Source of the DNA: Verrucomicrobiia bacterium
GTDB lineage: Bacteria; Verrucomicrobiota; Verrucomicrobiia; Palsa-1439
Assembly: GCA_035516795.1 (NCBI GenBank)
Contig: DATIZX010000055.1
Location: forward strand, 21,412-85,411
Direction of reading: 5' to 3'
Length of the DNA: 64,000 nt
Under the pieces are notes generated by a model. It worked only from the letters and a program-made list of their open reading frames with translations, was not told the DNA's origin and did not search any database. Within the stretch, counting starts at the first letter, position 1. Every line of letters starts with the position of its first letter. The position numbers and the translations under genes were made by a program. Shown in pieces: positions 8,658 to 50,286 of the stretch.

Positions 8658-8669
8658 GCTTTAAAGCGG

Positions 8670-21055: not shown

Positions 21056-24000
21056 ATGACGGCGCCCCGTCAACTTCGTAACGGTTTGACACCCGATCCG
21101 CACTGGTACAAGAGCGGGGTGATCTACGAACTGCACGTCCGTGCCTTTTACGACTGCGATGGTAATGGCATTGGCGATTTCCGCGGGCTGACCGAGAAGC
21201 TGGACTACCTCAAGGAACTCGGGGTGACCGCGCTTTGGCTCCTGCCGTTTTATCCATCGCCTCTCAAGGACGACGGTTACGACATCGCGGATTATTGTGC
21301 CGTGCATCCGATGTACGGCACGTTGGCAGATTTCAAAATGTTTCTGCGTGAAGCGCATCGCCGCGGATTGCGGGTCATCACAGAATTGGTATTGAATCAC
21401 ACTTCGGACCAACACGCCTGGTTTCAGCGGGCCCGTCGCGCCAAGCCCGGCAGCCGCCAACGTGACTTCTATGTCTGGAGCGACACGACGGGCAGGTACA
21501 AAGACGCTCGCATCATCTTCAAAGACGTCGAGTACTCGAATTGGACTTGGGACGCTGTCGCCAACGCCTACTACTGGCATCGTTTCTTTTCGCACCAGCC
21601 CGATCTCAATTATGAAAATCCCGAAGTTCACAAAGAAATGCTGAAGGTTGTGGATTTCTGGTTCGATCTGGGTGTGGACGGGCTGCGCCTGGATGCTGTC
21701 CCGTATCTTTACGAAAAGGAGGGGACCAGTTGCGAAAACCTGCCGGAAACGCATGCGTTCTTGAAGAAACTCCGTGCCCACGTGGACGGGAAGTATCGTG
21801 ACAGGATGTTGCTCGCCGAGGCCAATCAATGGCCCGAAGATGCGGTAGCTTATTTCGGTCAAGCGCCGGGCGACGAATGTCACATGGCGTATCATTTCCC
21901 ACTGATGCCCCGATTATTCATGGGTTTGCGGATGGAAGACCGCACGCCGATTGTGGACATTCTCGAACAAACACCCGCGATTCCCGAAGCCTGCCAGTGG
22001 GTGTTATTCCTGCGCAATCACGACGAACTAACCCTCGAGATGGTGACCGACGAAGAGCGCGATTACATGTACCGCATGTACGCCAAAACACATCAGGCGC
22101 GGCTTAATTTGGGCATCCGTCGTCGCCTGGCTCCGTTGTTGGGAAACGACCGCAAGCGCATCGAATTGCTCAATGCGCTTCTGTTTTCTCTGCCCGGCAC
22201 GCCATCCTTGTACTACGGGGATGAGATCGGCATGGGTGAAAACATCTTCCTCGGCGACCGCAATGGCGTGCGCACGCCCATGCAATGGAGTTCCGATAAG
22301 AACGCCGGTTTCTCGCGTGCCAACCCACAGGGTCTGTATCTGCCGATCATTTACGACCCCGAATATCATTACGAAGCGATCAATGTGGACGCACAAGCGA
22401 AAAACCCGCATTCGCTGCTGTGGTGGATGCGGCGGCTGCTCGCTCTGCGCAAACGCTGGCGCGCGCTGGGCGAAGGTCGGTGTGAATTTCTGCGTCCCGA
22501 GAACCGCAAAATCCTCAGCTATATTTTGCGTCACGAAGACGAGACCATTCTGGTCGTGGCCAATCTCTCGCGATTCGTGCAACCGGTGGAGTTGGAATTA
22601 TCGGCTTTCAAAGGCATGGTACCGACGGAGTTGTTTGGTCGGACCAGGTTTCCAGTGATCGCCGACCGCCCGTATTTCCTCACGCTTAGTCCGCACGCGT
22701 TTTATTGGTTTTCGCTGGAATCGCGACCTGTAGCGATCGTCCAGGCGTCGGTTCCTGCCGGCCACCAAGATGAACCGCGCGTCCTCGAGGTGGCAGACGA
22801 ATGGGCGCTGGTGCTCGCCGAAAAGGAACGGGCGCAGCTCGAAGCCTTGTTGTCGGCGTGGCTGCCCGCACGACCTTGGTTTATCGCCAAGGGAAAAACC
22901 ATCAAAGCGGTTACCATTGGAGAGTCCATTCCCGTACCGTGCGGCGCCGACACAGTTTTACTGGTGCTGGCGCAGGTCGAATACGTGGAAGGCGATACCG
23001 ATCTTTACTCATTGCCGTTGGCCTTTGCCCGGGGCGACGAGGCCGCCCTGCTTCGCCAGGACACTCCTTGGTTCATCATTTGCGGCCTGAGAATATTGGC
23101 GACGGGAGAGAGCGGCGTCCTTTATGACGCGGTGGGCAGCAAGACTTTTGCGCGGACATTGCTGGAATTGATCTCTGGCCGCCGGCGCATCAAAACCGAC
23201 CGGGTGGAAGTGCAGGCGCTGCGCACGCGAAATTTCCGCCGCCTACTGAACGACAACCCAGTGCCGGAGCCAATTGTTGGGAAGTTGGAGCGAAGCAATT
23301 CCTCCATTATTTTCGGCGATCGTTTCATCTTGAAATTGTTTCGCCGTCTCGACACGGGCACAAATCCGGACCTGGAACTCACCTGGTTTCTTACGGAACA
23401 GAAATTTCCGCACGCCCAGCAATTGGCCGGTGCCCTGGAGTTGTGCGGTCTCGCGGACGAACGGATCAGTCTGGCGATTCTCAATGGATTCATTTCCAAT
23501 GCGCGCGGCGCTTGGGAATACACCCTCGACGGGCTCGGCCGGTATTACGACCGCGTCCTCACCTTTGTGGCGGAAGGCCGTGAGGTGCCGGCAGGTCAAA
23601 CGCCGCTGGCGAGATTATTGCACGAAGAGCCGCCGGCGAAAATTGCCCAGGCGGTAGGGACCTATCTGGAATCAGCCCGCTTGTTGGGTGAGCGGACGGC
23701 CGGGATGCATCTGGCGTTGGCTGCGGGTACGGCCTATCGGGATCTGGCACCCGAACCGTTCACGCCGCATTACGTGCGTGGTCTGTTTCAATCCATGCGG
23801 AACCTCGCGACGCAAAATTTCCGCCTGCTGCGCACCCAACTCAAAACGCTGCCACCCAATGTCATCCCGCTGGCTCAGCGCGCACTGGAGCGGGAACAGG
23901 AGATCATCAGTTGCTACCGCCTGCTTTACACGCGCCGCATTACCGCGCGTCGCATCCGTTGTCACGGCGATTTTCACCTCGGGCAGATCCTCTATACCGG

Positions 24001-24424
24001 GAAAGATTTTGTCATGATCGATTTCGAGGGTGAGCCGCTCACGCCGCTCAGCGAGCGCCGCATCAAGCGTTCGGCGCTGCGCGACGTGTCCAGCATGGTG
24101 CGGTCGTTCCATTACGCGGCATGGACGGGTCTGTACGAGCATGTCCAGCGCGGTGGTGGCGACCCCCAGAGTTTGTCCAAATTTGAGCCCTGGGCGAACC
24201 TGTGGTATCAGGTGGTCAGCTCGGTTTATCTGCGAGCCTATTTGAAAGCGATGGGGCACTCGGAAGTCCTCCCTGATTCGGACGAGGAATTGCTGGCGAT
24301 GTTGCCGGCCTACCTGCTGAACAAAGCGGTTTACGAAGTCGGCTACGAACTGAATAATCGGCCGGCGTGGTTGCACATCCCGCTATTGGGCATACTGCAT
24401 TTGCTCGGGACGGAAGTGAAATGA
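21056..24424 (+). CDS. treS: trehalose synthase (maltose alpha-D-glucosyltransferase) fused to maltokinase (TreS-Mak/Pep2)
   Basis: 1122 aa. N-terminal GH13 TreS motifs (LWLLPFYPSPLKDDGYDIADY, GLRLDAVPYL, FLRNHDELT). C-terminal aminoglycoside-kinase-like maltokinase motifs (IIFGDRFILKLFRRL, HGDFHLGQIL, DFEGEP). Confidence 0.9.
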   Translation: MTAPRQLRNGLTPDPHWYKSGVIYELHVRAFYDCDGNGIGDFRGLTEKLDYLKELGVTALWLLPFYPSPLKDDGYDIADYCAVHPMYGTLADFKMFLREAHRRGLRVITELVLNHTSDQHAWFQRARRAKPGSRQRDFYVWSDTTGRYKDARIIFKDVEYSNWTWDAVANAYYWHRFFSHQPDLNYENPEVHKEMLKVVDFWFDLGVDGLRLDAVPYLYEKEGTSCENLPETHAFLKKLRAHVDGKYRDRMLLAEANQWPEDAVAYFGQAPGDECHMAYHFPLMPRLFMGLRMEDRTPIVDILEQTPAIPEACQWVLFLRNHDELTLEMVTDEERDYMYRMYAKTHQARLNLGIRRRLAPLLGNDRKRIELLNALLFSLPGTPSLYYGDEIGMGENIFLGDRNGVRTPMQWSSDKNAGFSRANPQGLYLPIIYDPEYHYEAINVDAQAKNPHSLLWWMRRLLALRKRWRALGEGRCEFLRPENRKILSYILRHEDETILVVANLSRFVQPVELELSAFKGMVPTELFGRTRFPVIADRPYFLTLSPHAFYWFSLESRPVAIVQASVPAGHQDEPRVLEVADEWALVLAEKERAQLEALLSAWLPARPWFIAKGKTIKAVTIGESIPVPCGADTVLLVLAQVEYVEGDTDLYSLPLAFARGDEAALLRQDTPWFIICGLRILATGESGVLYDAVGSKTFARTLLELISGRRRIKTDRVEVQALRTRNFRRLLNDNPVPEPIVGKLERSNSSIIFGDRFILKLFRRLDTGTNPDLELTWFLTEQKFPHAQQLAGALELCGLADERISLAILNGFISNARGAWEYTLDGLGRYYDRVLTFVAEGREVPAGQTPLARLLHEEPPAKIAQAVGTYLESARLLGERTAGMHLALAAGTAYRDLAPEPFTPHYVRGLFQSMRNLATQNFRLLRTQLKTLPPNVIPLAQRALEREQEIISCYRLLYTRRITARRIRCHGDFHLGQILYTGKDFVMIDFEGEPLTPLSERRIKRSALRDVSSMVRSFHYAAWTGLYEHVQRGGGDPQSLSKFEPWANLWYQVVSSVYLRAYLKAMGHSEVLPDSDEELLAMLPAYLLNKAVYEVGYELNNRPAWLHIPLLGILHLLGTEVK

Positions 24425-26337
24425 TCACAGTGATTCACAAACCAGCTTGGTTCAGTTCTGACGACCTGCACTGGTTTAACGAAGGGACGCATTCGCGGAT
24501 TTATGAGAAATTCGGCGCGCAGCTTACCAGCCAGAATGGAAGTACGGGCGTCCACTTTGCCGTCTGGGCCCCGAATGCGGAGCGCGTGTCGGTCATCGGC
24601 AACTTCAACAGTTGGAGCAAATCGAAGAACCTATTGCAGGCCATCGGCGCCTCTGGCGTGTGGGCGGGGTTCGTCCCCGAAATCGCGCGCGGGACGACTT
24701 ACAAATATCACATCGTGTCCCGTTACGATGGCTACGAAGTGGACAAGGCGGACCCCGTGGGATTTCGGCAGGAGACAGCCCCCAAAACGGCTTCATTGGT
24801 TTGGGATCTGGAGTATGCCTGGCAAGATCGAAATTGGATGAAGGTCCGCGGACAGCGTCAGAACCTGAGCCAACCCACCTCCATTTACGAAGTGCATCTG
24901 GGCTCTTGGATGCGCTTGCCGGAGGAAGGCAACCGCTGGCTCACGTATCGCGAATCGGCACCTCGGCTCGCCGAATACGTCCAACGGCTGGGGTTCACGC
25001 ATGTCGAGTTCTTACCCGTCATGAAACACCCATTCTACGGTTCCTGGGGTTATCAAACCACGTGCTACTATGCGCCCACCGGCCGCTATGGAACGCCGCA
25101 GGATTTGATGTATCTGATTGACTACCTTCACCAGCACGAAATCGGCGTGATTCTGGATTGGGTACCGTCGCATTTTCCTGCCGACGAATATGGCCTGGCC
25201 TATTTCGATGGAACTCATCTGTATGAACACGGCGACCCGCGCCAGGGAGTCCAACCAGATTGGCATAGTTACATTTTCAATTACGGACGCCACGAGGTGC
25301 ACAGCTTTCTGCTGAGCAACGCGTTGTTCTGGCTGGATAAATATCACGCCGATGGGTTGCGGGTAGACGCCGTGGCTTCCATGCTTTATCTGGACTATTC
25401 GCGCAAGCCCGGGGAATGGATCCCAAACCGCTTTGGTGGACGAGAAAATCTGGAGGCGATTGATTTCTTGCGACGGCTGAACGAGACCATTTATCGCGAG
25501 TATCCGGACGTGCAGACCTGTGCTGAAGAATCCACAGCTTGGCCTATGGTTTCGCGTCCGCTCTATGTGGGCGGATTGGGCTTCGGGTATAAATGGGACA
25601 TGGGGTTTATGCACGACACCCTCAGCTACTTCAGCAAGGAGCCGGTGCACCGCAAGTACCATCACAGCCAGATCACCTTCCGCGCCATGTACGCCTTCTC
25701 GGAGAATTTTATCCTGCCCTTTTCTCACGACGAAGTCGTCTATGGCAAGGGCTCTCTGCTTGCCAAGATGCCCGGGGACGACTGGCAGAGATTTGCCAAC
25801 CTGCGCCTGCTATTCGCCTACCTGTTTCTTCAGCCCGGCAAGAAGCTGCTGTTCATGGGCGATGAATTTGGCCAACGAAACGAATGGAATCACGAGACCA
25901 GTCTCGACTGGCGTTTGCTGCAATTTCCGCCGCATGCCGGCGTGCAACGATTGGTGAGCGATCTCAATCGCTTGTATCGGGGGCAACCCGCTCTGCATGA
26001 ATGCGACACGTCCCCGGATGGCTTTGCGTGGGTGGACTGCAACGATTCGGAACAGAGCACTCTCAGTTGGCTGCGACGCGGGACGCAGCCCGACGATACG
26101 GTGGTGAGTGTTTTCAATTTCACGCCGGTGGTGCGTCACAATTTTCGCGTCGGCCTCCCGCAGGGCGGTTTTTGGAGTGAATTGCTAAATACCGACGCTG
26201 CCGATTATGGGGGGAGCGGTCAGGGAAATCTCGGCGGACTCGAAGCCGCGCCGTTTTCGTGGCATGGGCAACCGAATACGTTCAGCATCACCCTGCCGCC
26301 CTTGGGTGCAGTCTGTTTCAAACGAGCCCAGTCATGA
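24421..26337 (+). CDS. glgB: 1,4-alpha-glucan branching enzyme GlgB
   Basis: GH13 branching-enzyme motifs (GVHFAVWAPNAERVSVIGNFNSW, GLRVDAVASMLY, FILPFSHDEVV). ATG at 24421 overlaps the treS-mak stop (ATGA). The listed ORF (24367) carries a non-native N-terminal extension. Confidence 0.9.
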   Translation: MITVIHKPAWFSSDDLHWFNEGTHSRIYEKFGAQLTSQNGSTGVHFAVWAPNAERVSVIGNFNSWSKSKNLLQAIGASGVWAGFVPEIARGTTYKYHIVSRYDGYEVDKADPVGFRQETAPKTASLVWDLEYAWQDRNWMKVRGQRQNLSQPTSIYEVHLGSWMRLPEEGNRWLTYRESAPRLAEYVQRLGFTHVEFLPVMKHPFYGSWGYQTTCYYAPTGRYGTPQDLMYLIDYLHQHEIGVILDWVPSHFPADEYGLAYFDGTHLYEHGDPRQGVQPDWHSYIFNYGRHEVHSFLLSNALFWLDKYHADGLRVDAVASMLYLDYSRKPGEWIPNRFGGRENLEAIDFLRRLNETIYREYPDVQTCAEESTAWPMVSRPLYVGGLGFGYKWDMGFMHDTLSYFSKEPVHRKYHHSQITFRAMYAFSENFILPFSHDEVVYGKGSLLAKMPGDDWQRFANLRLLFAYLFLQPGKKLLFMGDEFGQRNEWNHETSLDWRLLQFPPHAGVQRLVSDLNRLYRGQPALHECDTSPDGFAWVDCNDSEQSTLSWLRRGTQPDDTVVSVFNFTPVVRHNFRVGLPQGGFWSELLNTDAADYGGSGQGNLGGLEAAPFSWHGQPNTFSITLPPLGAVCFKRAQS

Positions 26338-26425
26338 GAGCATCCCGGGGAAGACCTCATCGAATTCGGAACCATCGTTTCCCATGTCACAAGGCCTGCA
26401 ATGGGAAGGCCGGGAGTAGGGTTCC

Positions 26426-28555
26426 ATGAGACGCATTTTGCCGGGCGAACCATATCCCCTGGGTGCGACTTGGGACGGCAGAGGGGTGAACTTTGCGATT
26501 TTCTCCGAGCGCGCCGAGCGGGTCGAACTCTGCCTCTTCGACTCACCCGCCTCGAGAAAGGAGTCGGTGCGGATTTCGCTTCCGGAAAGGACGGATCTCG
26601 TTTGGCATGGATACCTGCCGGGTATGCGCCCCGGCCAACTGTATGGCTACCGGGTCTGGGGCCCTTACGATCCGAAAAACGGACAACGCTTCAATCCCCA
26701 CAAGGTGCTCTTTGATCCTTACGCCAAAGCCGTCGGACGCCCACTGCGCTGGGGCGATGAGTTGTTCGGGTACCGGATTGGGGATCACCACGAAGATCTC
26801 TCGTTTGATAAACGCGACGATGCAGCATCGGCCCCGTTGGGAACCGTTGTCGATCCTGATTTCGATTGGGAGAATGACCGGCCACTGCGCCACCGCTGGC
26901 GCGATACCGTGATTTACGAGACGCACGTGAAAGGCTTTACCCGTCGGCATCCGAAAGTGCCCGAAGCGCTGCGCGGGACGTATGCCGGGTTGGTTTCGAA
27001 ACCGGCGATCGAGCATTTGAAAAACCTCGGCATCACGGCGGTGGAAATCATGCCGGTCCATCATTTCGTTGACGACCGGCATCTGCTGGAGCGCAAGCTC
27101 TCAAATTACTGGGGCTACAACACGCTCGGATTCTTTGCCTTGGAGCCTCGATATGCCTCTTCTCGAACTTCTCACGGCACGGTCCGAGAATTCAAAACGA
27201 TGGTCAAAACCCTTCATCAGGCCGACCTCGAAGTCATTCTTGATGTGGCTTATAACCATACCGCCGAAGGCAATCACTTTGGCCCGACCCTTTCGTTTCG
27301 AGGTATCGACAATACCGCCTACTATCGACTCGTATCCGGCGACCGACGCTACTACATGGATTTCACCGGCTGCGGCAACACGCTGAACATGACACATCCA
27401 CGCGTACTGCAGATCATCATGGATAGCCTACGGTATTGGGTGGTGGAAATGCACGTGGACGGCTTCCGATTCGATTTGGCGGCGGCGCTGGCGCGAGAGT
27501 TTTACGAAGTGGATCGTTTGGGAGCCTTCTTTGACATTATCCACCAAGATCCTGTTTTGTCGCAGGTGAAACTCATTGCCGAACCGTGGGACCTCGGCAA
27601 AGGCGGCTATCAGGTCGGCAATTTCCCGGTCGGCTGGACCGAGTGGAACGGCAAGTATCGCGATGCCATCCGCCGCTTTTGGAAGGGGGACAGCGGCGCC
27701 ATGTCGGAGTTGGCCACTCGTCTTTGCGGCAGCAGCGATTTGTACGAACAGAGTGGGCGCCGTCCATCGGCGAGTATCAATTTCGTCACGAGCCACGACG
27801 GGTTCACACTCGAGGACCTCGTCAGCTACGATCACAAGCACAACGAAGCCAACGGCGAACAGAATCGTGATGGGACTGACCACAATCTTTCCTGGAACCA
27901 CGGCGTGGAAGGGCTCACCGACAAGACGGCCATCCTCGATCTCCGCGAGCGCCAAAAGAGGAATTTTCTGGCCACGCTTCTTTTCTCGCAGGGTGTTCCG
28001 ATGCTGAGCGGAGGTGACGAGATGGGACGCACCCAACGCGGGAACAACAACGCCTTTTGTCAGGACAATGAACTGACCTGGTACGACTGGGATCTGGACG
28101 ATCGCCAGCGAGCGTTGCTGGATTTCACTCGCCGAATCATCCAATTCCGAAAACAACATGCGAACTTGCGCCGACGCAAGTTCTTTCAGGGTCGCTCCAT
28201 TCGTGGCTCCAGAGCCAAAGACGTCGTCTGGCTGCGGGCAGACGGCACGGAGATGACCGACAAAGAGTGGGCGGCCCGGTGGATGCGTGCCCTTGGGATG
28301 CGTCTCGATGGCGACGCTCTGGAAGTCGTGGATGCGCGCGGTCAGCGGATTACGGACAACACATTGTTGCTATTGCTGAATGCCCATCACAAAGCGGTCT
28401 CTTTCACATTGCCGAAATTTGTACTGCACGCGCGCTGGTCCATGATTTTTGATACGAACCGGCCCAATTTGAAGGAAGGGGAGCAAATCGCGGCCGGGCG
28501 AACGTCGATTATTCTCGCCGCGCGTTCCCTGATGCTATTGCGTCATGTCGACTGA
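26426..28555 (+). CDS. glgX: glycogen debranching enzyme GlgX (isoamylase-type)
   Basis: 709 aa. N-terminal CBM48 region ([18 protein letters not shown]) and GH13 catalytic motifs ([21 protein letters not shown]). Confidence 0.9.
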
Positions 28556-31067
28556 AGCCTCAAACTCCGGTTCGGTGGACTCGTTCGCGCGTGTTCCGCG
28601 TGCCACGTACCGGCTGCAATTCAATCACGAATTTACGTTACGCCAGGCGATCGAATTGGTTCCGTATCTGAATGACTTGGGCATCAGCCACCTTTATGCC
28701 TCGCCTCTGCTCAAGGCTTGTCCCGAGAGCATGCACGGCTATGACGTTTGCGATTACTCCCAGCTCAACCCAGAACTGGGAACAGAGGTGGAGTTGGAGG
28801 AGTTGGTGGCGCATTTGCGAAAGCACGACATGGGCTTGGTGCTCGACATCGTGCCGAATCACATGGGCATCAGCAGCCGCGAGAACCGGTGGTGGTGGGA
28901 CGTGCTCAAGAACGGACGCGCCAGCCGCTTTGCGGATTTCTTTGATATCGACTGGGAGTCGCCGGACCCGCGACTGCGCGGCAAAGTGCTCGTGCCGGTG
29001 CTCGGCGATTTCTACGGTCGCATCCTGCAGCGCGGCGAATTGAAGCTGGCCTACGAGCAGGGGGAAATCGTGCTCTGCTATTACGATCATCGTTTCCCCA
29101 TTTCATCCGAGACGTTGACCGTCGCGCCCGCTTCCCTTGCAGAATCGCTGGCAAAACTGAATGGGGACCTCACCGCGCTGGATGAGTTGATTCAAAAGCA
29201 GCATTACCGGCTTGCGGGCTGGCGGCATGGCAACGCGGAGTTGAACTACCGCCGCTTCTTCGATATCTCCACACTGGCCGGCATCCGCGTGGAAGACCCG
29301 CGTGTATTCGGGGCTGTCCACGCCCTCGGGCTCCGTTGGTATGCCAATGGATGGATTGACGGGTTTCGTGTGGATCATCCCGATGGCTTGCACGATCCGA
29401 CGGAGTACTTCGAACGCCTGCGCGTTGCCGCGCCGTGCGCTTGGATCGTGGCGGAGAAAATACTCCAACCCGGCGAGGTGATGCCGGAGGATTGGCCGGT
29501 CGCCGGCACCACCGGTTACGAATTTATGCGCCGCGTCACGGGCTTGTTCATTGATCCCGAAAGCGAAAAACCGTTGACCGATGTCTATGTCGAGTTCACC
29601 GGCGAGCCAACGGACTATGGTTTCGTGGTGCGCGAAAAGCAGAAGCTGGTCCTGCGTGGCCTGCTCGAGGCCGAGGTCAACTGGTTGACCCGGTTGCTCG
29701 TGCGCATTGCGGGTCGGTACTGGCGTTATCGCGATCTCGCCGAGACGGATCTTCGGGAGACCCTGATTGAAGTGACGGCGCGGCTGCCGGTCTACTGCAC
29801 GTATGTACAGGCACACCTCGGTCGCGTGCCAGACGCGGACGCAGCGGTGATTTCCGAGACGATCTCCTGGGCGCGACAACGCAGGTCGAATCTGCCGCCG
29901 GAAGGATTCGATTTCATTGAAGACCTGCTGCTGCTCCGCCTCAGCGGCGAAGTCGAGCACGAATTCGTGATGCGGTTTCAGCAACTCACCGGCCCGACGA
30001 TGGCCAAGGGCGCCGAGGACACGGCGTGTTACTGTTTCAACCGGTTGATTGCCCTGAACATCGTGAGTGGTGACCCCGGCCGCTTTGGTCTGACGCCGCA
30101 GTCTTTTCACGAACGCTGCGCGCGCGCCCGGCGGCGCTGGCCTCATTCGATGCTTACCACTTCGACCCATGACACCAAACGCAGCGGAGATGTGCGGATG
30201 CGGATCTGTCTGCTTTCGGAAATCCCGCAGGAATGGCGCACCGCGGTCGTTCGCTGGTCCACGATGAATGAGAAACATCGCCGCGGCGAGTGGCCGGACC
30301 GTAATATTGAATATTTCTACTATCAAACCCTCGTTGGCGCGTGGCCTCTGCCGTTGGAACGGGCCCTCTTGGTCATGGAAAAGGCCGCACGCGAAGCCAA
30401 GCAGTATACTTCCTGGACCCGACCAAATTCGGGATACGATTCCGCCCTGCGCGAGTTTGTGAAGGGCACGCTCGGTGACCAACAATTCATTGCCGACCTG
30501 GAGCGCTTTATGGCGAAGTTGGTCGAACCCGGCCAGGTGAACTCGCTGGCGGAACTCCTTTTGAAGCTTACCACACCCGGTGTTCCCGATATTTATCAAG
30601 GCGATGAACTTTGGGACTTCAGCTTGGTTGACCCGGACAACCGACGTTCCATCGACTTTGCAATGCGTCGCCGGCTATTGGCCGAGTTGTCCGGATTATC
30701 CGTTGACCAGGTCTGGCGTCGGCGAAACGAGGGGCTGCCCAAAATTTGGCTGCTGCAAAAGACGCTCCATTTCCGACGCGATCACCCCGAACTACTCGGC
30801 GGCGAAAGCAGTTATGAGCCGTGCTCCGCCACCGGCGCCAAAGCTGAACACGTTGTGGCCTTCATTCGTAGCGCGCGCGTCGCTACAATTGTGCCGCGTC
30901 TCGTCGTACGCCTGAAGGGCGAATGGAACGATACCAGGCTGAGCTTGCCGGCCGGTAACTGGACCAACGAACTCACCGGTGAAGCGGTCGCCGGCGGCGT
31001 CTGTCACCTGGCCGATTTGTTGAAACATTTCCCGGTGGCATTACTTTCTAGGAAAGAACGGGATTGA
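28545..31067 (+). CDS. treY: malto-oligosyltrehalose synthase TreY
   Basis: 840 aa. TreY-characteristic N-terminus ([39 protein letters not shown]) with GH13 motifs. Overlaps glgX by 11 nt. Confidence 0.9.
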
Positions 31068-32821
31068 TGCACACGTTCCGCGTTTGGGCTCCCCTTCCCA
31101 AAAGAGTGGAGCTTCTCGTTCAGGGCCGACGCTCACCAATGCAGCGGGGCCAGGATGGGTGGTGGACGGCAACTAACCAATCTGCAGCGCCGGGCAGCGA
31201 CTACGGTTTTTTCGTCGATAACGAGGGTCCATTCCCGGATCCGCGCTCCGCTTGGCAACCCTCCGGAGTGCATGCCTTGTCGCGGTTGGTCGATCATTCG
31301 GCTTTTCAGTGGACCGATGGGGGCTGGCAGGCGCCGCCACTCTCAAAAGGGATGGTTTACGAACTACACGTCGGGACCTTTACGCCCCAGGGAACATTCG
31401 CCGCCGCCATCGGGAAACTGAATCATCTGGTATCTCTCGGAGTGACTCATGTCCAATTGATGCCCGTGGTCGAATTCCCGGGGGCTTACGGTTGGGGATA
31501 TGATGGCGTCGATGTATTTGCTCCTCGACACGTCTATGGCGGGCCGAGTGGACTCAAGCAGTTTGTGGACGCCTGCCATGCGGACGGTCTGGCTGTGCTC
31601 TTGGACGTTGTCTACAACCACTTGGGACCTTCTGGGAATTATCTCGCGAAGTATGCACCCTATTTCACACGGCGCTACCACACGCCGTGGGGCGACGCTG
31701 TGAATTTTGACGGGCCAGATAGCGACGAAGTGCGCCGCTTCTTTTGTGACAACACGCTGATGTGGCTCCGCGATTATCATTTCGATGGCGTGCGCTTGGA
31801 CGCCGTGCATGCCATCAAGGACGCGTCCGCTTTCCCCTTTTTGGAGCAACTTGGACGGGAAGTAAAAGATCTGGAATCCTCGCTGGGACGGCCATTGGTC
31901 GTCATTCCGGAAAGCGACTTGAACGATCCCCGGCTTCTCTGGCCTTACGAGCACGGCGGTTTCAACCTCGATGCGCAATGGAGTGACGACTTTCATCACG
32001 CGCTGCACACGGTTCTGACGGGCGAGCGAACCGGTTACTACGAAGATTTCGGCACGTTGGCGGATGTGGCCAAGGCGCTGGAGAAGGCCTATGTTTATGC
32101 TGGGGGCTATTCCGTTCATCGTCGCCGCAGCCACGGTCGACCACCGATCGGCTTGGGCGGTAATCGCTTCTTGGGATATCTACAGAACCACGACCAGGTC
32201 GGTAATCGAGCCCGGGGGGAGCGCATCAGCCAACTCGTCAGCGTCGACCGCTTGAAGATCGGCGCGGCTTTGGTGATGACTTCACCATTCGTGCCGATGC
32301 TGTTCCAAGGGGAAGAATGGGGCGCTTCGACACCATTCCTCTATTTTACGGATCATCAGGAACCAGAACTCGCGAAAGCCGTGTGCGAAGGGCGACGCCG
32401 GGAATTCGCCGCTTTCGGCTGGAAACCAGAGGAGATTCCCGATCCGCAGGCGCCCGAAACATTTCAGCGGTCAAAGCTGAACTGGTCGGAACTTACGCGC
32501 GAGCCACACGCCGAGATTCTCGACTGGCATCGGCGTCTGATCCAGTTGCGTCGCTCCGAGCCTTCTTTGACGGACGGTCGGTTGGATCGTGTCCGTGTCC
32601 ATTTCAACGAGCAGGATCGTTGGCTGGTGGTTGAACGCGGCCCGATCAGTGTGGTCTGTAACCTTGCGGACCGATCTCAGCGAATTCCGATACGCACGGG
32701 AACACATGAGGTACTGATGGCTTCGGCCGCAGGAAATGTAGTGGCCGGCGCGAGCGCAAATTTGCCGCCGGATGCAGTTGTGATTTTGAAATCATCTGAA
32801 TCTCGGTCCGGTCTCTGCTGA
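31064..32821 (+). CDS. treZ: malto-oligosyltrehalose trehalohydrolase TreZ
   Basis: 585 aa. N-terminal E-set domain (FRVWAP...VELL) and GH13 motifs (GFDGVRLDAVHAI, YLQNHDQVGNR). ATGA overlap with treY. Confidence 0.9.
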   Translation: MMHTFRVWAPLPKRVELLVQGRRSPMQRGQDGWWTATNQSAAPGSDYGFFVDNEGPFPDPRSAWQPSGVHALSRLVDHSAFQWTDGGWQAPPLSKGMVYELHVGTFTPQGTFAAAIGKLNHLVSLGVTHVQLMPVVEFPGAYGWGYDGVDVFAPRHVYGGPSGLKQFVDACHADGLAVLLDVVYNHLGPSGNYLAKYAPYFTRRYHTPWGDAVNFDGPDSDEVRRFFCDNTLMWLRDYHFDGVRLDAVHAIKDASAFPFLEQLGREVKDLESSLGRPLVVIPESDLNDPRLLWPYEHGGFNLDAQWSDDFHHALHTVLTGERTGYYEDFGTLADVAKALEKAYVYAGGYSVHRRRSHGRPPIGLGGNRFLGYLQNHDQVGNRARGERISQLVSVDRLKIGAALVMTSPFVPMLFQGEEWGASTPFLYFTDHQEPELAKAVCEGRRREFAAFGWKPEEIPDPQAPETFQRSKLNWSELTREPHAEILDWHRRLIQLRRSEPSLTDGRLDRVRVHFNEQDRWLVVERGPISVVCNLADRSQRIPIRTGTHEVLMASAAGNVVAGASANLPPDAVVILKSSESRSGLC

Positions 32822-34130: not shown

Positions 34131-35939
34131 ATGAACTTCGAATCCATCGAGAACCATGGGATTATTGGCGACCTGCAAACCTCTGCTCTGGTAGGCATCG
34201 ATGGCTCGGTCGACTTCATGTGTTTCCCGCGGTTTGATTCCCCGACCGTCTTTGCGGCACTTCTGGACAGCAAGAATGGCGGACGGTTCCAAATCGCTCC
34301 GACGACTTCGGAAGAGTTTCAGCGCAAGCAGATCTATTTCCCAGACACAAACATGTTGTTGACTCGTTTCCTATCGAATGACGGTGTGGCTGAGATCTCT
34401 GACTTCATGCCGCTCGAGCACTTGGGGCACAGCCACGATCTCGTGCGCCGTGTGAAGGTCGTGCGCGGGCAACTCCGGCTGCGAATGGTTTGCGCGCCCC
34501 GCTTCGACTATGGCCGTGCCAAGCACAAGGTGGAAAAGCGGAAGGGCGAAGTGTTGTTCATTGCCGAAGGTAAAAAGGGCATAACCTTGCGGCTGCGCGC
34601 GAGTGTTCCCGTACGAATCAAGAACGGAGATGCCATCGCAGAATTCACCTTGAAGGCGGAGGAAAACGCCTCGTTTATTTTGGAACAGGTAGCGCCGCGG
34701 CAGGAATCTCCATCCACCCAACCTGACTACATCTCGGAATCTTTCAAGCAGACAATGAATTTCTGGCAGATGTGGGCGGGACGGTCCCAGTATCGCGGTC
34801 GCTGGCGCGAAATGATCACACGGTCCGCCCTCACCCTGAAGTTGTTAACCTACGCACCGTCTGGCTCCATAGTCGCGGCTCCAACCTTTGGCTTGCCAGA
34901 GGAAATTGGCGGCCCGCGCAATTGGGATTACCGGTACACCTGGGTCCGCGACGCATCCTTCACGCTCTATGCCTTGATGCGCCTTGGCTACACGGAGGAA
35001 GCGGCGGCCTTCATGCGCTGGATTGAGGAGCGTTGCCAGGAGACGACCGCATCCAATCCGCTGCAGGTGATGTATGGAATTGACGGTCGCCGCGACCTTG
35101 CGGAGATCGAGCTGCCACATTTCGAAGGGTACCGCCATTCCAAGCCGGTGCGCATCGGTAACGCGGCGTATCGCCAACTGCAGCTCGATATCTACGGCGA
35201 ATTGATGGATTCCGTTTACATCTACAACAAATACGGCGAGCCCATCTCCTATGATTTTTGGATGAACCTCACACGACTGATCGACTGGGTGTGCGAGCAT
35301 TGGCAGGAGCCCGACGATGGAATTTGGGAAGTTCGTGGGGGCCCACGGCTGTTTCTGTATTCACGGGTGTTGTGCTGGGTGGCGATCGACCGCGGAATTC
35401 GCCTGGCGCTCAAGCGGTCGTTTCCCGCGCCGCTGGGCCGCTGGCAACGCATTCGTGACGAGATTTATCAGGACGTATATCATAAGTTTTGGAACGCGAG
35501 ATTGCGCGCTTTCGTGCAATTTAAAGGGGCCAAAACGGTGGATGCGTCGAGTCTGCTCATGCCGATGTTGAAATTCATCAGCCCGATGGACCCGCGTTGG
35601 TCCTCCCATCTGGCGACGGTAGAAAACAAGCTGGTGGAAGATTCGTTGGTGTACCGGTACAAAGTGCTCGAAGGAAGCCAGGACGGATTGCCGGGGAGCG
35701 AAGGCACTTTCACCATGTGCTCCTTCTGGTATGTCGAATGTCTGGCCCGCGCTGGCGATCTGAAACTGGCCCGGTTCATTCTCGAAAAGGCCTTTGGTTA
35801 TGCCAACCACGTTGGGCTGTATGCGGAGGAACTGGGACATTGCGGTGAGCAACTGGGCAACTTCCCGCAAGCCTTTACCCATCTGGCGCTCATCAGTGCC
35901 TGCTCGTACCTGGACCGGAAACTGGGTCCCGGCGCTTAA
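34131..35939 (+). CDS. glycoside hydrolase family 15 protein (glucoamylase/trehalase-like)
   Basis: 602 aa. N-terminal beta-sandwich plus an (alpha/alpha)6 catalytic domain, with GH15-typical motifs (NWDYRYTWVRDASF, QLDIYGELM). Confidence 0.8.
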   Translation: MNFESIENHGIIGDLQTSALVGIDGSVDFMCFPRFDSPTVFAALLDSKNGGRFQIAPTTSEEFQRKQIYFPDTNMLLTRFLSNDGVAEISDFMPLEHLGHSHDLVRRVKVVRGQLRLRMVCAPRFDYGRAKHKVEKRKGEVLFIAEGKKGITLRLRASVPVRIKNGDAIAEFTLKAEENASFILEQVAPRQESPSTQPDYISESFKQTMNFWQMWAGRSQYRGRWREMITRSALTLKLLTYAPSGSIVAAPTFGLPEEIGGPRNWDYRYTWVRDASFTLYALMRLGYTEEAAAFMRWIEERCQETTASNPLQVMYGIDGRRDLAEIELPHFEGYRHSKPVRIGNAAYRQLQLDIYGELMDSVYIYNKYGEPISYDFWMNLTRLIDWVCEHWQEPDDGIWEVRGGPRLFLYSRVLCWVAIDRGIRLALKRSFPAPLGRWQRIRDEIYQDVYHKFWNARLRAFVQFKGAKTVDASSLLMPMLKFISPMDPRWSSHLATVENKLVEDSLVYRYKVLEGSQDGLPGSEGTFTMCSFWYVECLARAGDLKLARFILEKAFGYANHVGLYAEELGHCGEQLGNFPQAFTHLALISACSYLDRKLGPGA

Positions 35940-35957
35940 ATCCCACTCCAGCCTCGC

Positions 35958-37148
35958 TTATCGTATCGCCGGGTTCTTCTTGAGATGGAAACTGGCCTCA
36001 AATGAGTTGAACAGATCCAGATACTGCTCCAGGTAACGTGTGAGCAGAAAATGATTCGCGACGGTTTTGCGGGCGCTACGACCGAAGCGTTCCCGGAGCC
36101 GCTTGTCTTTCAGCAACTGGACGACGCGTCGCACCGTCTGTTCTACCGAGGAAACAAGGAAACCGTTGACCCCATCCCGGATCTGATAACGAATGCCACC
36201 AACGTTGCCACCGACGACCGGCGTGCCTTTCCACATCGCTTCGGTCACCGTCAGGCCAAATCCTTCGCGGATGGATTTTTGCAGAATCACTGCCGCCCGG
36301 CTTTGGATGGTGTTCACCAGCGCCGTATCGTCGCCATTGGGCAAAATGAGGATCCGTTCATCACGGGCATTCAACAGCGATTCGTAGATTTCTGCGCCCT
36401 CCGGATCGTCGGAAGCGAAATTGCCGAGCATGACCAGCGCGCAATCCACTTCCTTTCGGATCAGCCGAAAGGCTTCGATGACCCCGCGCGGATCCTTCCA
36501 GGGATCGAAACGCGAAACCCGGGCGATGATGGGAAGGTCTGTCGGGATACCGTAGTACGCAAGACGCCCATCCATTTCTCGATCTTGCAGTCGCTGGTTT
36601 TTCGTGGTGAACGGATCAATGGCTGGCAGGAAAAACAGTTGCGGCGGTCTCAGTTTCCGCGCGTACTCGGGAATACCAAGGATGACGGCGTCGTGCTGCT
36701 CGATGAAGCGCGCCAGGTAGTGGGGATGAGAGAGATCGATGTGGCAACGCCAGATCCACGGCGCCCTTTTTGTATTTTTGTATAATGGCGGATAAGCGGG
36801 AGCGGCTGCGGATCGTGAACGACCACCAGATCATGATTGAAATGGTTCCGAATGGAATTCTCGAAGACGACCTTTTCGTAAATCTGGCGAACCCTGCAAC
36901 ACGCGCCAGCCGGCTTCCAGGCCGAGCCCGTTCATCAACAACGTCATCGAGGACAACAGCTCGGCAACACCTCCGCCGTAATAAGTCGAATTGATGTTGG
37001 TGAAGCGGAATCCGCGCAAGGCCTCGGCTTTGGAGAGAATTCGATCGACCGCTTTGGCACCGATGAATGGCGCGTAATCCTCAACCTTTGGCAGTTTGTA
37101 TCGCACGACAGGTCTTCCGTGAACGAGATCGGCATGTTGCCCGGTCAC
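35958..37148 (-). pseudogene. TreT-like GT4 trehalose glycosyltransferring synthase, interrupted by an in-frame TGA and an internal deletion
   Basis: ORFs 36831..37148 and 35958..36575 are in the same frame and together resemble TreT (INSTYYGGGVAELL, GLEAGWRVLQG, PWIWRCHIDLSHP, EGFGLTVTEAMWKGTPVVGG). A TGA at 36831-36833 separates them. About 30 codons are missing relative to TreT. An AT-rich patch (tttttgtatttttgtataat) sits at 36765-36790. Confidence 0.6.
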
Positions 37149-37229
37149 TACGATGGCAACTTAGTCCAACCCCAAGTTAGAAAGCAAGTGGAGTGCCCGG
37201 ACACAACAGCCTAACGTCTTCGTGGAATG

Positions 37230-38138
37230 CTATCCTTTCGTGGCTCCAGCGGTGAGACCTTGGATGATTCGTTTCTGGAAGACTACGACCAGCCCAATCA
37301 GTGGCAGCGTGCTCACCACGACCGCGGCCGCGATGGCGCCCCAGGGGATTTCATAGATGCTCCCACCGCTCAGACTCGCGACGCCGGCGGTCACCGTTTT
37401 GGCCGAGTCGCGGGTCATGAACGTCAGCGCCAGCAGGAATTCATTCCAGCAAAAGATGAAGATCAAAATGGCGGTGGTCGCCAACGCAGGCGCAGACAGT
37501 GGCATGATGATTTTCATGAGAATCTGCCAGCGATTGAATCCATCCACTTTGGCGGCTTCCTCGATATCGAGCGAGATGGTACGGAAGAACGCCGTTAGAA
37601 TCAGCGTCGCGAATGGAAGATTGAAGGTGATGTAGGGAACGATCAGCGCGATGGGATTGTTGGCCATGCCCGTTCGTCGCACCAGTTCGTACAACGGGAA
37701 AAAGAAGATGATGGTTGGGAAAAATGAAATGGAGATCAGTCCGACTTGCAGCCCTCTCGCGCCACGCACTTTAAGTCGTGAAAAACTGTAGGCCGCCATC
37801 GCGCTGACCAGCACACAGACAACTGTTGACACGCTCGAAATCAAGAAACTGTTCCACAAATAACGCGCGAACGGTTTACGGCTGAATAGCTCTTGATAAT
37901 GGCCCCAAGTCGGATGCACCGGAGCATAAATGGTGGGGATGTGAGCGATCTCCGCATTGGTCTTCAGCGAGGTGATGATCTGCCAGGCAAACGGTGCAAG
38001 ACACCACACCACCGCCAGCCAAATCAGAATTTGCTGCAGCGTCTTTTTCACATGGCCTCGGATTTTTCCACGGCGCGCTCCGTCGCCAGAGCGCGTGCAC
38101 CGCGTGTTCGCGACAGTGGCCAGTAAATCAACAGGCAA
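37230..38138 (-). CDS. carbohydrate ABC transporter permease (MalG/ThuG-like)
   Basis: 302 aa, 6 TM helices, EAA loop (EEAAKVDGFNRWQIL). Start uncertain (90-nt overlap with the upstream permease as listed). Confidence 0.85.
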   Translation of the reverse strand: MPVDLLATVANTRCTRSGDGARRGKIRGHVKKTLQQILIWLAVVWCLAPFAWQIITSLKTNAEIAHIPTIYAPVHPTWGHYQELFSRKPFARYLWNSFLISSVSTVVCVLVSAMAAYSFSRLKVRGARGLQVGLISISFFPTIIFFFPLYELVRRTGMANNPIALIVPYITFNLPFATLILTAFFRTISLDIEEAAKVDGFNRWQILMKIIMPLSAPALATTAILIFIFCWNEFLLALTFMTRDSAKTVTAGVASLSGGSIYEIPWGAIAAAVVVSTLPLIGLVVVFQKRIIQGLTAGATKG

Positions 38139-38998
38139 ATTCCGCTCGTAATCAGGAATGTCACCACGATCATCGCCGCACCGTAGCCGAAATCCAGGTA
38201 GCGCAGAAAGGTACGGTAATTGTAAATCGCAACGGTTTCAGTGGCGCCACCCGGGCCGCCACCGGTCATCACGAAGATCAGGTCGAAGATTCCAAAGGAC
38301 TGGATGGTTCGAAACAACAGGGCCAGCATGATCGACGGCATCAACATCGGCAGCGTGATTAAACGAAAGCTGTTCCAGGCGCGGGCGCCATCGATTTGGA
38401 CCGCTTCGTACAGATCCTCGGGAATGTTCTGCAGCCCGGCCAGCAGGATAATCATCATGAACGGTGTTGTCTTCCAAACGTCGGCAAAGATCACTGAGAA
38501 CATGGCGGTGGGACCGCTGCCGAGCCAGGCCACAGGGCGCGAGAGCAAGCCCAAGCGCATCATCAAATCGTTGAAGACACCAGATTGATCGTTGAAGATC
38601 CAGGCCCACGCCAAGGCGAGCACCGCCGTCGGTAACGCCCAGGGAATGAGCGTTGCCGTCCGCGCAAAGGAGCGACCGTGAAATTTCTCATTAAGCAGAA
38701 GAGCGAACCACAATCCAAGCAGTAGTTCCGTGCTGACGGCAATAAATGTGAAAACAGTTGTTGTCATCATGGTCTGCCAGTAATGCCCGTCCTTCAGCAG
38801 ACGGACGTAATTGAGCGTACCGCTGAATTGCGGATGCAAGCCGGTGCCGAGATTCTGGGTAAAGAAGCTTAACCAAAGAATTCGCAGAACCGGATACACG
38901 GCCACGACCAACACAAATATCGCTGCTGGCCATAGCATGAGATATCCAAACGCTTGGTCTTCCAAACGCATCTTCTTGTTGTGTGCGGGTGTCCTCAT
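38048..38998 (-). CDS. carbohydrate ABC transporter permease (MalF/ThuF-like)
   Basis: Permease homology begins at M226 of the listed 541-aa ORF. That ATG (38996-38998) overlaps the SBP stop (ATGA). EAA loop YEAVQIDGARAWNSFRLITLP. Confidence 0.8.
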   Translation of the reverse strand: MRTPAHNKKMRLEDQAFGYLMLWPAAIFVLVVAVYPVLRILWLSFFTQNLGTGLHPQFSGTLNYVRLLKDGHYWQTMMTTTVFTFIAVSTELLLGLWFALLLNEKFHGRSFARTATLIPWALPTAVLALAWAWIFNDQSGVFNDLMMRLGLLSRPVAWLGSGPTAMFSVIFADVWKTTPFMMIILLAGLQNIPEDLYEAVQIDGARAWNSFRLITLPMLMPSIMLALLFRTIQSFGIFDLIFVMTGGGPGGATETVAIYNYRTFLRYLDFGYGAAMIVVTFLITSGICLLIYWPLSRTRGARALATERAVEKSEAM

Positions 38999-40317
38999 CG
39001 AAGTTGAGCCATTGGAAACGCGTGGGAATCGCGGCCTTTTGAAGTCCTGGTCCGTCGCAATAGCAATCGTGTCTCGCTGGCTGCTCCGCGCATTGCCTGT
39101 TTGGGAGTGAGCCGTCCCGTTAAGGCGGCGCTGACATACCGCTGCAAAATATCGGAAGCTTGCGCGTATTGTGGCACAGGAGGACGAGGAACGGTGGTTT
39201 GCAGCACCCGATAAATGGCCTGCTGCACGGGATCGGGACTGTTCTCGTAGAAACTTTTCAGTGCCGGCTGAATGGCGGTGGCTTGGTTGATTCTGCGGAT
39301 TTGCGGCAAGGCACTGATGAATTCGCAAAACTTCCACGCTGCGTCTTGGTGGTGACTGCTTTTGGCAATGGCAAAGCCGTATCCGCCTAGGGTCGAGGCT
39401 GGTCGTCCGTCGTCCGATTTTGGCATTGGCGCCAGGCCCACCTTGCCTTTGATCGGCGATTCTTCCCGCTGCGACAGCGGCCAGACGTATGGCCAATTGC
39501 GAAGGAAAATTGCCCGCCCGCTCTGAAATAGTTGACGGCTCTGTTCCTCCGCATACGTCGTCACGCCCGGCGGCGAAATCTTCCACTTCTGCACGCAGTC
39601 GGTCAGGAACGTCAGCGCCGCCACGCCCGCAGGCTGATCGAGTCCGACCTGATCCGTGTCCGGGTTGATCCAAAATCCACCGTAACCGATCAGCACTTCC
39701 AGAAAATCACACGCCAGCCCCTCGTATTGTTTTCCCTGCCAAACAAAGCCCCAGAGTTGGGGTGGATGCTGCAATTTCTGCGAAATTTGGGCCAAATCAT
39801 CGAAGGTCGCAGGCGGTCGCTCGCCCGCCTTTGCCAGCAAATCTTTACGGTAAAAAAGCACGGCGCCGTCGATCTGTGTCGGCACACGGTAAATGCGTCC
39901 CCGATACTTGCTGCCTTCGATCGAACCGCTGATGAACCGATCCCACTCGGACGGGCTCCAGCGGTCTGTCAAATCTTCCAGCCAACCGGCCGCGGCAAAT
40001 TTCGGAATCCACACCACATCGGCGTACACCAGATCATAAGCAGACTCGCCACTGAGAAACGAGGTCGTATAAAGATCTTCGCGAGCATCGGTCGCCGTCG
40101 GTCCTTCGACGTGGTGGATCTGAATTCCCGGATTCCTTTCGTGGAACTCGGCAAACAATTTCCGCCAAATGCCGGTGGTGTCCGGCTCCATTAAAACATT
40201 CAGCACCACCACGCCTTCTGTCGATTCGGCCCTTTTTTCGCAGCCGACCAAAGACGCCGCGAACAGCAGCAACAATCCCATCCAAAACCGAGAATCCCAC
40301 GTCCTGAATCGCATCAC
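38995..40317 (-). CDS. extracellular solute-binding lipoprotein, family 1 (sugar ABC transporter SBP; trehalose/maltose-type)
   Basis: 440 aa. Signal peptide with lipobox LVGC. Family-1 SBP fold similarity. Confidence 0.85.
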   Translation of the reverse strand: MMRFRTWDSRFWMGLLLLFAASLVGCEKRAESTEGVVVLNVLMEPDTTGIWRKLFAEFHERNPGIQIHHVEGPTATDAREDLYTTSFLSGESAYDLVYADVVWIPKFAAAGWLEDLTDRWSPSEWDRFISGSIEGSKYRGRIYRVPTQIDGAVLFYRKDLLAKAGERPPATFDDLAQISQKLQHPPQLWGFVWQGKQYEGLACDFLEVLIGYGGFWINPDTDQVGLDQPAGVAALTFLTDCVQKWKISPPGVTTYAEEQSRQLFQSGRAIFLRNWPYVWPLSQREESPIKGKVGLAPMPKSDDGRPASTLGGYGFAIAKSSHHQDAAWKFCEFISALPQIRRINQATAIQPALKSFYENSPDPVQQAIYRVLQTTVPRPPVPQYAQASDILQRYVSAALTGRLTPKQAMRGAASETRLLLRRTRTSKGRDSHAFPMAQLR

Positions 40318-41366
40318 AGTTTCTCCTCGGTCTGCGAATTGAAAAAGTGGAGTCGAGATTCATCGGGCTGCAACGGAATGGCGCCGCTCCAATCGCCATG
40401 CGGCTCGACCAGAACCTGCAGCTTCTGGCCCTCAACACGCACATTCAGAACGGTGAAGGCACCAAGCGGTTCAATCACTTCTACCTTGCCCGTCAAAGTC
40501 CCCTGGCCGACACGCATGTTTTCCGGACGCACGCCGACCAGCACTTCCTTTTGTCCTTGCAGAGTCTCCAGTCGCGACCGGCTTAGCGGGATTTTCTGGT
40601 TGCCTAACTTCAGTCCGTCCTCGGTCACGCGACATTTAAGAATGTTGATGCGCGGACTGCCGACGAAGTTGGCCACGAAGACGTTCGCGGGTTGATGATA
40701 AATCTCCTCAGGTGTGCCGAGTTGTTGGACGCGGGCGTTGTAAATCACGGCAATGCGGGAAGACATGGTCATCGCCTCGGTCTGGTCGTGCGTGACATAG
40801 ATCACCGTCGCGCCGAGGTCCGCGAACAGACGTTTCAATTCCGCGCGCATTCGTTCCCGCAGAATGGCGTCGAGGTTGGAGAGTGGTTCATCGAGGAGAA
40901 ACGCCTTCGGCTTGCGAATGATGGCGCGTCCGAGCGCCACCCGCTGCCGTTGGCCGCCGCTCAACGCCCGCGGCTTGCGATCCAACAACGCTTCGATGTC
41001 GAGCAGCCGTGCGGTCTCTTTGACCCGGTGTTGGATTTCGCTCGCTGAAATTTCCCTGAGCCTGAGATTGACCGCGATGTTTTCGTAGACCGTCATGTGC
41101 GGATAAAGCGCATAACTTTGAAACACCATCGCGATGTCGCGGTCGGACGGATGCACATGATTGACCCGGCGCTCGCCGATGAAAATCTCACCGTCGGTCA
41201 CGGTTTCCAGGCCCGCGATCATGCGCAGAATCGTGGATTTCCCGCATCCCGACGGCCCGAGCAAGGTCAAAAATCCCTTGTCCTCGACTTCAAAACTGAC
41301 CGACCGAACGGGAGTGACGCCCGGTGCGAAGGTCTTGGTAAGATTATGCACGAACACCCGTGCCAT
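40314..41366 (-). CDS. sugar ABC transporter ATP-binding protein (MalK/UgpC-like)
   Basis: 350 aa. Walker A GPSGCGKST, signature LSGGQRQRVALGRA, Walker B FLLDEPLSNLD, and a C-terminal TOBE regulatory domain. Stop overlaps the SBP start by 4 nt. Confidence 0.9.
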   Translation of the reverse strand: MARVFVHNLTKTFAPGVTPVRSVSFEVEDKGFLTLLGPSGCGKSTILRMIAGLETVTDGEIFIGERRVNHVHPSDRDIAMVFQSYALYPHMTVYENIAVNLRLREISASEIQHRVKETARLLDIEALLDRKPRALSGGQRQRVALGRAIIRKPKAFLLDEPLSNLDAILRERMRAELKRLFADLGATVIYVTHDQTEAMTMSSRIAVIYNARVQQLGTPEEIYHQPANVFVANFVGSPRINILKCRVTEDGLKLGNQKIPLSRSRLETLQGQKEVLVGVRPENMRVGQGTLTGKVEVIEPLGAFTVLNVRVEGQKLQVLVEPHGDWSGAIPLQPDESRLHFFNSQTEEKL

Positions 41367-44761: not shown

Positions 44762-44770
44762 GGAACGACC

Positions 44771-45043
44771 CTACTGTTTTGCGCCGGGCGGTGGCTGTTG
44801 CGCCAGCCAACGACGCAGAGTACCCAAAGATTGCATGACCTGGCGCGCGACTTCCGCGTCGTTGATCACGATACCATAATGCTTCTCAATCGCCACGGTG
44901 AGTTGGAGCGCGTCCAGTGAATCCAGTCCGACACCTTTGGGGCCGAATAATGGAGTATCCTCAAGGATCTCACCAGGTTGGACCCTGAGAATACAGTTTT
45001 CGACAACCAGTTTTTTCAATTCGTCCAGAGAAATATCAGCCAT
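44771..45043 (-). CDS. acyl carrier protein
   Basis: Listed ORF starts at 45184, but ACP homology begins at M48 (MADISLDELKK...). Phosphopantetheine-attachment motif GLDSLDALQL. Confidence 0.8.
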   Translation of the reverse strand: MADISLDELKKLVVENCILRVQPGEILEDTPLFGPKGVGLDSLDALQLTVAIEKHYGIVINDAEVARQVMQSLGTLRRWLAQQPPPGAKQ

Positions 45044-45072
45044 TTGTCGAGCCTCACGCTCCTGTATGTAAA

Positions 45073-47355: not shown

Positions 47356-47359
47356 CGGA

Positions 47360-48811: not shown

Positions 48812-48919
48812 ACTGTCCGAGCGCCTGGCGCCAGTAATCTTCTTGACGGCAAGTGTGGCCCGCTGTATCTGACGCCACGCAAGTTGCGCATTTCACGGCG
48901 GGAACAAATCAATGTTTGA

Positions 48920-50254: not shown

Positions 50255-50286
50255 AACTTTAGCCTGCACCCGAGGTTTGACCCGGC

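Follow-up and report, generated by a model that had tools for sequence, protein, structure and literature searches.

A probable, recently inactivated TreT-type trehalose synthase pseudogene with three slippage-type lesions in an uncultured Verrucomicrobiae genome

A minus-strand locus in an uncultured Verrucomicrobiae genome is very probably what remains of a TreT-type trehalose synthase gene that was inactivated recently, a pseudogene with three slippage-type lesions. TreT is a GT-B enzyme of family GT4 that reversibly converts NDP-glucose and glucose into trehalose and NDP (PMC1769515, PMC11046441). In place of an uninterrupted TreT open reading frame (ORF) of about 400–415 codons, the locus carries two frameshifts and lacks 30 codons, and reading from its start stops after 91 codons. 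Judging from its sequence, the gene is unable to yield a full-length protein, and we infer that the locus is without function. All positions refer to the 64,000-nucleotide stretch of DNA that was analysed (the window), and the features discussed are collected in Table 1.

Table 1. Features of the TreT locus and its surroundings, and contigs from other assemblies that cover it (positions in the window)
Feature	Positions	Strand	Basis and remarks
TreT-family (GT4) trehalose synthase pseudogene, whole	35958..37106	-	GTG start 37106-37104, TAA stop 35960-35958
N-terminal segment, codons 1-75 (MRYKLPKVEDY...INSTYYGGGVAELL...WRVLQGSPD)	36882..37106	-	original frame; matches only positions 1-39 of the TreT_GT1 profile
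Junction of the 77-nt deletion, sole decamer CGCCAGATTT left	36880..36889	-	77-column gap in DNA alignment
Middle segment in the other frame (YEKVVFENSIRNHFNHDLVVVHDPQPLPLIRHY), includes the invariant HDPQP motif	36783..36880	-	three-frame translation and homolog alignment
TGA, first stop of the shifted frame, ends the 91-aa truncated product	36831..36833	-	translation
Perfect 8-bp tandem duplication, TACAAAAA TACAAAAA	36767..36782	-	TRF; 8-column insertion versus three homolog genes
Junction of the in-frame 15-nt deletion (CAC/TAC), between 36720 and 36719	36717..36722	-	15-column gap in DNA alignment
C-terminal part, undamaged (APWIWRCHIDL ... EGFGLTVTEAMWKGTPVVGG ... stop)	35958..36766	-	original frame; Glycos_transf_1
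GH15 trehalase-like gene (TREH_N and Glyco_hydro_15), intact	34131..35939	+	Pfam; NCBIfam TreH1 E 6e-118, below the equivalog cut-off
TreS-maltokinase fusion (1122 aa), GlgB, GlgX, TreY and TreZ, contiguous, intact	21056..32821	+	all above NCBIfam curated cut-offs
Sugar ABC importer, intact, upstream of the pseudogene on the same strand	37230..41366	-	profile matches and gene calls
MalK-like ATPase	40314-41366	-	
Sugar-binding protein	38995-40314	-	
Importer permease (296 aa)	38048-38938	-	gene call on identical Logan contig
Importer permease	37230-38051	-	
Logan SRR8881011 contig	35222-40575		100% identical, spans all three lesions
ENA ERZ27256612 contig	35582-37810		100% identical, spans all three lesions
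ENA ERZ27256617 contig	35852-36942		100% identical, spans all three lesions

The family assignment is based on motifs, structures and profiles. Two minus-strand ORFs, 36831..37148 (105 aa) and 35958..36575 (205 aa), lie in one common frame in the ORF listing, and three-frame translation recovered from the locus the motifs INSTYYGGGVAELL, PWIWRCHIDL and EGFGLTVTEAMWKGTPVVGG, in agreement with a preliminary description of two fragments that share a frame and contain TreT motifs. Its reading of the locus as a decayed TreT-like gene was also borne out, by matches to TreT structures in the PDB, by Pfam domains and by the disrupted frame. The repaired translation matched the solved TreT structures 6zj4 (E 3.5e-87) and 2x6q (E 7.7e-86) far beyond chance, versus E values of 1e-18 or worse for the next-best GT4 families, and it contained the Pfam domains TreT_GT1 (PF21269, E 7e-33) followed by Glycos_transf_1 (PF00534, E about 2e-28 to 8e-28). 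The TreT_GT1 match consists of two stretches, with profile positions 40-64 absent, and reaches 114 bits, compared with 190 bits in P0001, the closest intact homolog and the source of the residue numbering used here for deleted codons. The repaired translation scored 306 bits against the NCBIfam equivalog model NF041139 (TreT_Thcocales), below its cut-off of 775 bits, which says little about decay because this model is specific for Thermococcales. Indeed, intact bacterial homologs (371–384 bits) also fall below that cut-off and are thus to be considered TreT-family proteins, not proven equivalogs. Homologs of about 410 aa appear by the thousands among 5.8 billion protein clusters, and JGI lists many of them as trehalose synthase; the best shows 76% BLASTP identity to the repaired translation, and in an alignment to nine homologs the identity to intact 410-aa proteins was 72–81% over the aligned columns. 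The start codon assigned to the pseudogene is that of a 91-aa gene call in L081 and agrees with the N-termini of the homologs.

Lesions were mapped with protein alignments to the nine and to the 120 closest homologs, and with a DNA alignment to three homolog genes. The preliminary description attributed the inactivation to an indel; indels are indeed present, although there are three of them (−77, +8 and −15 nt) and not a single one. Likewise, its estimate of some 30 missing codons was right in number, but they do not form a single gap before PWIWRCHIDL: 25 and 5 codons are missing at two separate sites.

The largest lesion is the 77-nt deletion, which starts directly after the D75 codon, eliminates 25 codons (F77–K101 of P0001) and shifts the frame. 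In the homolog genes, a CGCCGGACTT-like decamer at position 218 and a CGCCAGATTT-like decamer at position 295 are spaced by exactly 77 nt, and the conserved positions S-P-D-F and R-Q-I-Y encode them; the second of these copies, as it occurs in P0003, fully matches the decamer left in the pseudogene. A blastn comparison with the P0001 gene also returned two HSPs, both of which include the decamer CGCCAGATTT. Such a pattern is typical of slippage or recombination at short direct repeats, and the deletion probably arose in this way between two out-of-frame decamer copies resembling CGCCAGATTT, with the ancestral junction and the exact mediating repeat deduced from genes whose products are 72–81% identical to the pseudogene. 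In three-frame translation, the original frame turns to nonsense after WRVLQGSPD and then runs into the TGA, so that translation from the native start would end after 91 residues. This stop was correctly located in the preliminary description, which took it for the interrupting lesion; it is a consequence of the 77-nt frameshift, the first out-of-frame stop after the deletion, and does not reflect a point mutation in the true frame. Also missed at that time was that a second frame carries IYEKVVFENSIRNHFNHDLVVVHDPQPLPLIRHYTKIQKG: the codons of the middle segment (n=37), IYEKVVFENSIRNHFNHDLVVVHDPQPLPLIRHY, are kept, but out of frame.

The second lesion is the perfect tandem duplication of 8 bp (TRF: period 8, 2.1 copies, 100% match, 36767-36783), within a run of Lys codons in the conserved HY-(T/K)K(K/R)-APW coding stretch. 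When a single copy was taken out in silico, HYTKRAPWIW was restored, with a gap-free alignment to the homologs, and the duplication presumably originated by replication slippage in the run of Lys codons. It returns reading to the original frame, which is the reason why the two outer fragments share one frame. The same site was earlier noted as an AT-rich scar. The string ccctttttgtatttttgtataatgg (plus strand) does occur at 36763-36787, but it corresponds to native Lys-rich coding sequence plus the 8-bp duplication; an origin as foreign DNA or as the scar of an insertion was thus rejected, given that the patch is the native HY-TKR-APW coding stretch with that duplication. Nor is the surrounding GC content 60%, as had been described: local GC is about 55% and falls only slightly at the patch, to 0.48 over 60 nt. 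TRF also reported a 12-bp repeat with 1.9 copies (TGCCACCAACGT, 36194-36216) inside the undamaged C-terminal part, where it codes for the conserved VGGNVGG motif; this repeat thus belongs to the normal coding sequence and is no lesion.

The third lesion, the in-frame deletion of 15 nt, is putatively also of slippage type and eliminates five codons after DLSHPH (P154–K158 of P0001), including that of an invariant Trp. Altogether, the net change in length is −84 nt, in frame, and the two frameshifts add up to −69 nt (−77 + 8), a multiple of three. Nevertheless, compensation of one frameshift by the other was rejected, because there is a TGA between the two lesions, HDPQP is encoded only in the true frame, and an in-frame sum has a chance expectation of 1 in 3. 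The three lesions occur within about 170 bp, although this mild clustering is not significant according to our own estimate for three random sites (P about 0.06–0.11).

The deleted sequence is strongly conserved in the family. As deduced from the alignment to TreT orthologs, a check already proposed in the preliminary description, the 25- and 5-residue segments missing in the pseudogene are present in 120 out of 120 closest homologs, as well as in both archaeal TreT structures. Eight of these residues are 100% conserved among the 120 homologs: T, K, H, N, L, Q and G in the larger segment, and the Trp in the smaller one. In an AlphaFold model of P0001 (pLDDT 89, pTM 0.88), the first deletion affects the N-terminal Rossmann domain, where it takes out almost all of helix 75-88 and extends through the loop behind it into the start of helix 97-113, and the 15-nt deletion takes away the start of helix 154-164. 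Even a frame-corrected product would be predicted to be missing one entire helix in its N-terminal Rossmann domain, together with the eight invariant residues. On what individual residues of the deleted helix do in TreT structures, a literature search gave general descriptions only.

Since the genome was assembled from a metagenome, and since the lesions lie within some 170 bp and close to low-complexity or repeated sequence, where assemblers can slip, we evaluated whether the organism could have an intact gene of about 410 codons, disrupted only by assembly or sequencing errors. We consider this very unlikely. At the level of assembly, the locus is concordant in four data sets produced by two or more assemblers (the NCBI MAG, Logan and two ENA k141 contigs), which may all stem from one study and one population. 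The three other assemblies are 100% identical to the window across the lesions, which makes an assembly artefact unlikely, and gene callers produced the same 91-aa and 205-aa fragments on their contigs. Resequencing that revealed an intact ORF of about 410 aa had been put forward as the result that would overturn the description, and these three assemblies largely answer it in the negative. Besides, lesions of 77, 8 and 15 nt are atypical of short-read consensus errors, and we did not see other split genes in the 64-kb window, which is densely packed with long intact ORFs with whole-domain Pfam matches and thus gives no indication that frameshifts are a general problem. A near-identical intact protein was not found among the 5.8 billion protein clusters (best, 76% identical), nor was a relative closer than 81% identity in the databases searched; in a search of contigs for close relatives, the best among the matches listed was 66% identical. 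Searching the JGI metagenomes with a gapped DNA pattern spanning the duplication gave 0 matches, either to an intact allele or to further lesion-bearing contigs. A minority intact allele may exist in the source population.

A second alternative is that the locus is altered but functional, either because programmed frameshifting or stop read-through would allow synthesis of a short TreT, or because the C-terminal Rossmann half, as the 205-aa ORF or a longer one, would be expressed separately and work as a stand-alone NDP-sugar-binding protein. Consistent with this, the net change of −84 nt is in frame, the 270 C-terminal codons are undamaged and highly conserved, and public annotation treats the 205-aa ORF, contained within the C-terminal part, as a protein, deposited as 'glycosyltransferase' (HUJ09673.1). 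However, straight reading turns the HDPQP block into nonsense and meets the TGA; overcoming this needs two recoding events, for which there are no recognisable signals, and the product would still miss 30 residues, eight of them invariant in 120 homologs. In addition, GT-B enzymes require both Rossmann domains, as known for the family (PMC11046441), the ATG of the 205-aa ORF is merely the conserved internal Met of the E-M motif, and conservation of the C-terminal part is explained equally well by recent inactivation. For these reasons, we regard a functional locus as highly improbable. It is similarly hard to credit that the C-terminal half (35958-36766) is expressed as a stand-alone NDP-glucose-binding protein, or that the lesions resulted from a single complex template-switching event; either of these, if true, would make the locus more than a plain pseudogene. 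Finally, a natural short variant, in which the 25- and 5-residue gaps were lineage-specific traits of a working enzyme and only the frameshifts were errors, is conceivable insofar as the nearest sampled homolog is just 76–81% identical, but it is extremely improbable because neither segment is missing in the 120 closest homologs or in the archaeal TreT structures, and because one of the two frameshifts is due to the 77-nt deletion, which makes gap and frameshift inseparable.

Returning to a pseudogene of recent origin, its remaining codons retain the signature of purifying selection. The dN/dS ratio of the repaired coding sequence versus four intact genes was 0.07–0.09 (NG86), not higher than the 0.07–0.23 found among pairs of intact genes, although these values are rough due to saturation of dS (>1.3). 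The repaired coding sequence does not contain any stop in the true frames. At the 144 near-invariant sites, conserved in at least 95% of the sequences, the pseudogene maintains 137 residues and differs at seven, mostly through conservative changes; this is a mild excess over the mean of 2.5 changes (sd 2.1) in the homologs, six out of 120 of which show as many or more. The low dN/dS together with the few changes at conserved sites suggests that nearly all of the divergence accrued under purifying selection and points, from sequence comparison, to a recent inactivation. The nearest relatives are too distant for finer dating, with 76–81% identity for TreT and 79% for the GH15 product, and without synteny to the window.

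The gene order around the locus connects it to sugar uptake and trehalose turnover. The pseudogene is the last gene of an importer operon of the MalK–SBP–MalF–MalG type, and is convergent with the GH15 trehalase-like gene, their stop codons being separated by 18 nt. Within the importer, a mechanically called ORF of 541 aa (38048-39673, minus strand) is misleading, in that the part of it outside the permease overlaps the binding-protein gene in another frame. A scan of the locus for promoters and terminators gave nothing above the expectation from shuffled sequence. Some 20 kb of the contig are devoted to trehalose and glycogen metabolism, comprising the glucan/trehalose block, the GH15 gene, the ABC importer and the TreT relic. 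Between TreZ and the GH15 gene, the plus strand (32898-34079) encodes a protein of 393 aa, in which a thioredoxin domain at the N-terminus is followed by a long C-terminal part that has no Pfam match.

None of the contigs with the nearest intact homologs (P0001–P0004) or with the nearest GH15 homolog (P0143) shows the arrangement of ABC importer plus GH15 gene, so none of them can represent the syntenic state before the loss. The nearest GH15 homolog (79%) and the nearest intact TreT (76–81%), on L088 (ERZ27256617) and L089 (ERZ27256511), belong to the ENA assembly series that also supplied two of the pseudogene-bearing contigs, and their flanks are not syntenic to the window. That environment probably also harbours a related lineage whose TreT is intact.

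Elsewhere in the window, the mutL gene is intact (608 aa, 4006-5832, minus strand), so the window gives no hint of defective mismatch repair as the cause of the slippage lesions. It also contains two tandem genes for YfhO-like membrane proteins of about 800 aa (6264-11129, minus strand) and an AddAB-like helicase-nuclease pair (12263-18201, plus strand). A cluster at 42618-51885 codes for a lipid A-type acyltransferase, an FAD-dependent (Trp-halogenase-like) oxidoreductase, a 760-aa ketoacyl synthase, two B12-binding radical SAM proteins (one with DUF4070) and a beta-lactamase-family protein, and may be dedicated to lipids or to secondary metabolites.

Examples of TreT (EC 2.4.1.245, CAZy GT4) come from the archaea Pyrococcus horikoshii (2x6q/2xa2), Thermoproteus uzoniensis (6zj4) and Thermococcus litoralis. 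The pseudogene has in common with archaeal TreT the two-domain GT-B architecture (TreT_GT1 plus Glycos_transf_1) and the blocks NST..GGGVAE, HDPQP, W.WRCHID, SRFD.WK and REGFGLTV.EA.WK, but it is bacterial and broken, with two frameshifts, 30 codons missing and a product of 91 aa. In T. litoralis, treT reportedly adjoins the genes of a sugar ABC transporter, with the gene for the binding protein first, followed by two permease genes and treT (Qu et al. 2004, cited in PMC1769515). The order of the importer genes and the pseudogene presumably resembles that trehalose/maltose transporter-treT cluster. The intact bacterial TreT-like proteins (P0001–P0120, about 410 aa, from soil and sediment metagenomes), 72–81% identical to the pseudogene, differ from it in that all 120 have both deleted segments. 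Bacterial genomes have a deletional bias, and the pseudogene does not differ in kind from other bacterial pseudogenes generated by slipped strands: it likewise combines a deletion that spans the exact spacing of two decamers with a perfect short tandem duplication, and its remaining codons show a signature of purifying selection.

The loss of this gene could have been tolerated because both synthesis and breakdown of trehalose are covered by intact neighbours, with TreY/TreZ and TreS presumably acting in synthesis and the GH15 trehalase-like enzyme in the breakdown of imported trehalose. The preliminary description had seen in TreT a redundant third route to trehalose; TreS-Mak and TreY/TreZ are in fact intact in the window, but a role in synthesis is only one of the possible readings. 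The lost role may instead have been catabolic, since the pseudogene is the last gene of the importer operon and is convergent with the GH15 gene, and since the TreT reaction is reversible (PMC1769515).

In terms of annotation, the locus should be flagged as a TreT pseudogene, including HUJ09673.1, currently listed as a "glycosyltransferase" protein, which would keep a TreT route from being counted when the metabolism of this Verrucomicrobiae MAG is reconstructed. Although it has little importance beyond correct annotation, this locus would provide an example of deletion between short direct repeats that are encoded by two conserved peptide motifs, and also of the loss of a redundant gene beside intact TreS-Mak, TreY/TreZ and GH15 trehalase-like genes.
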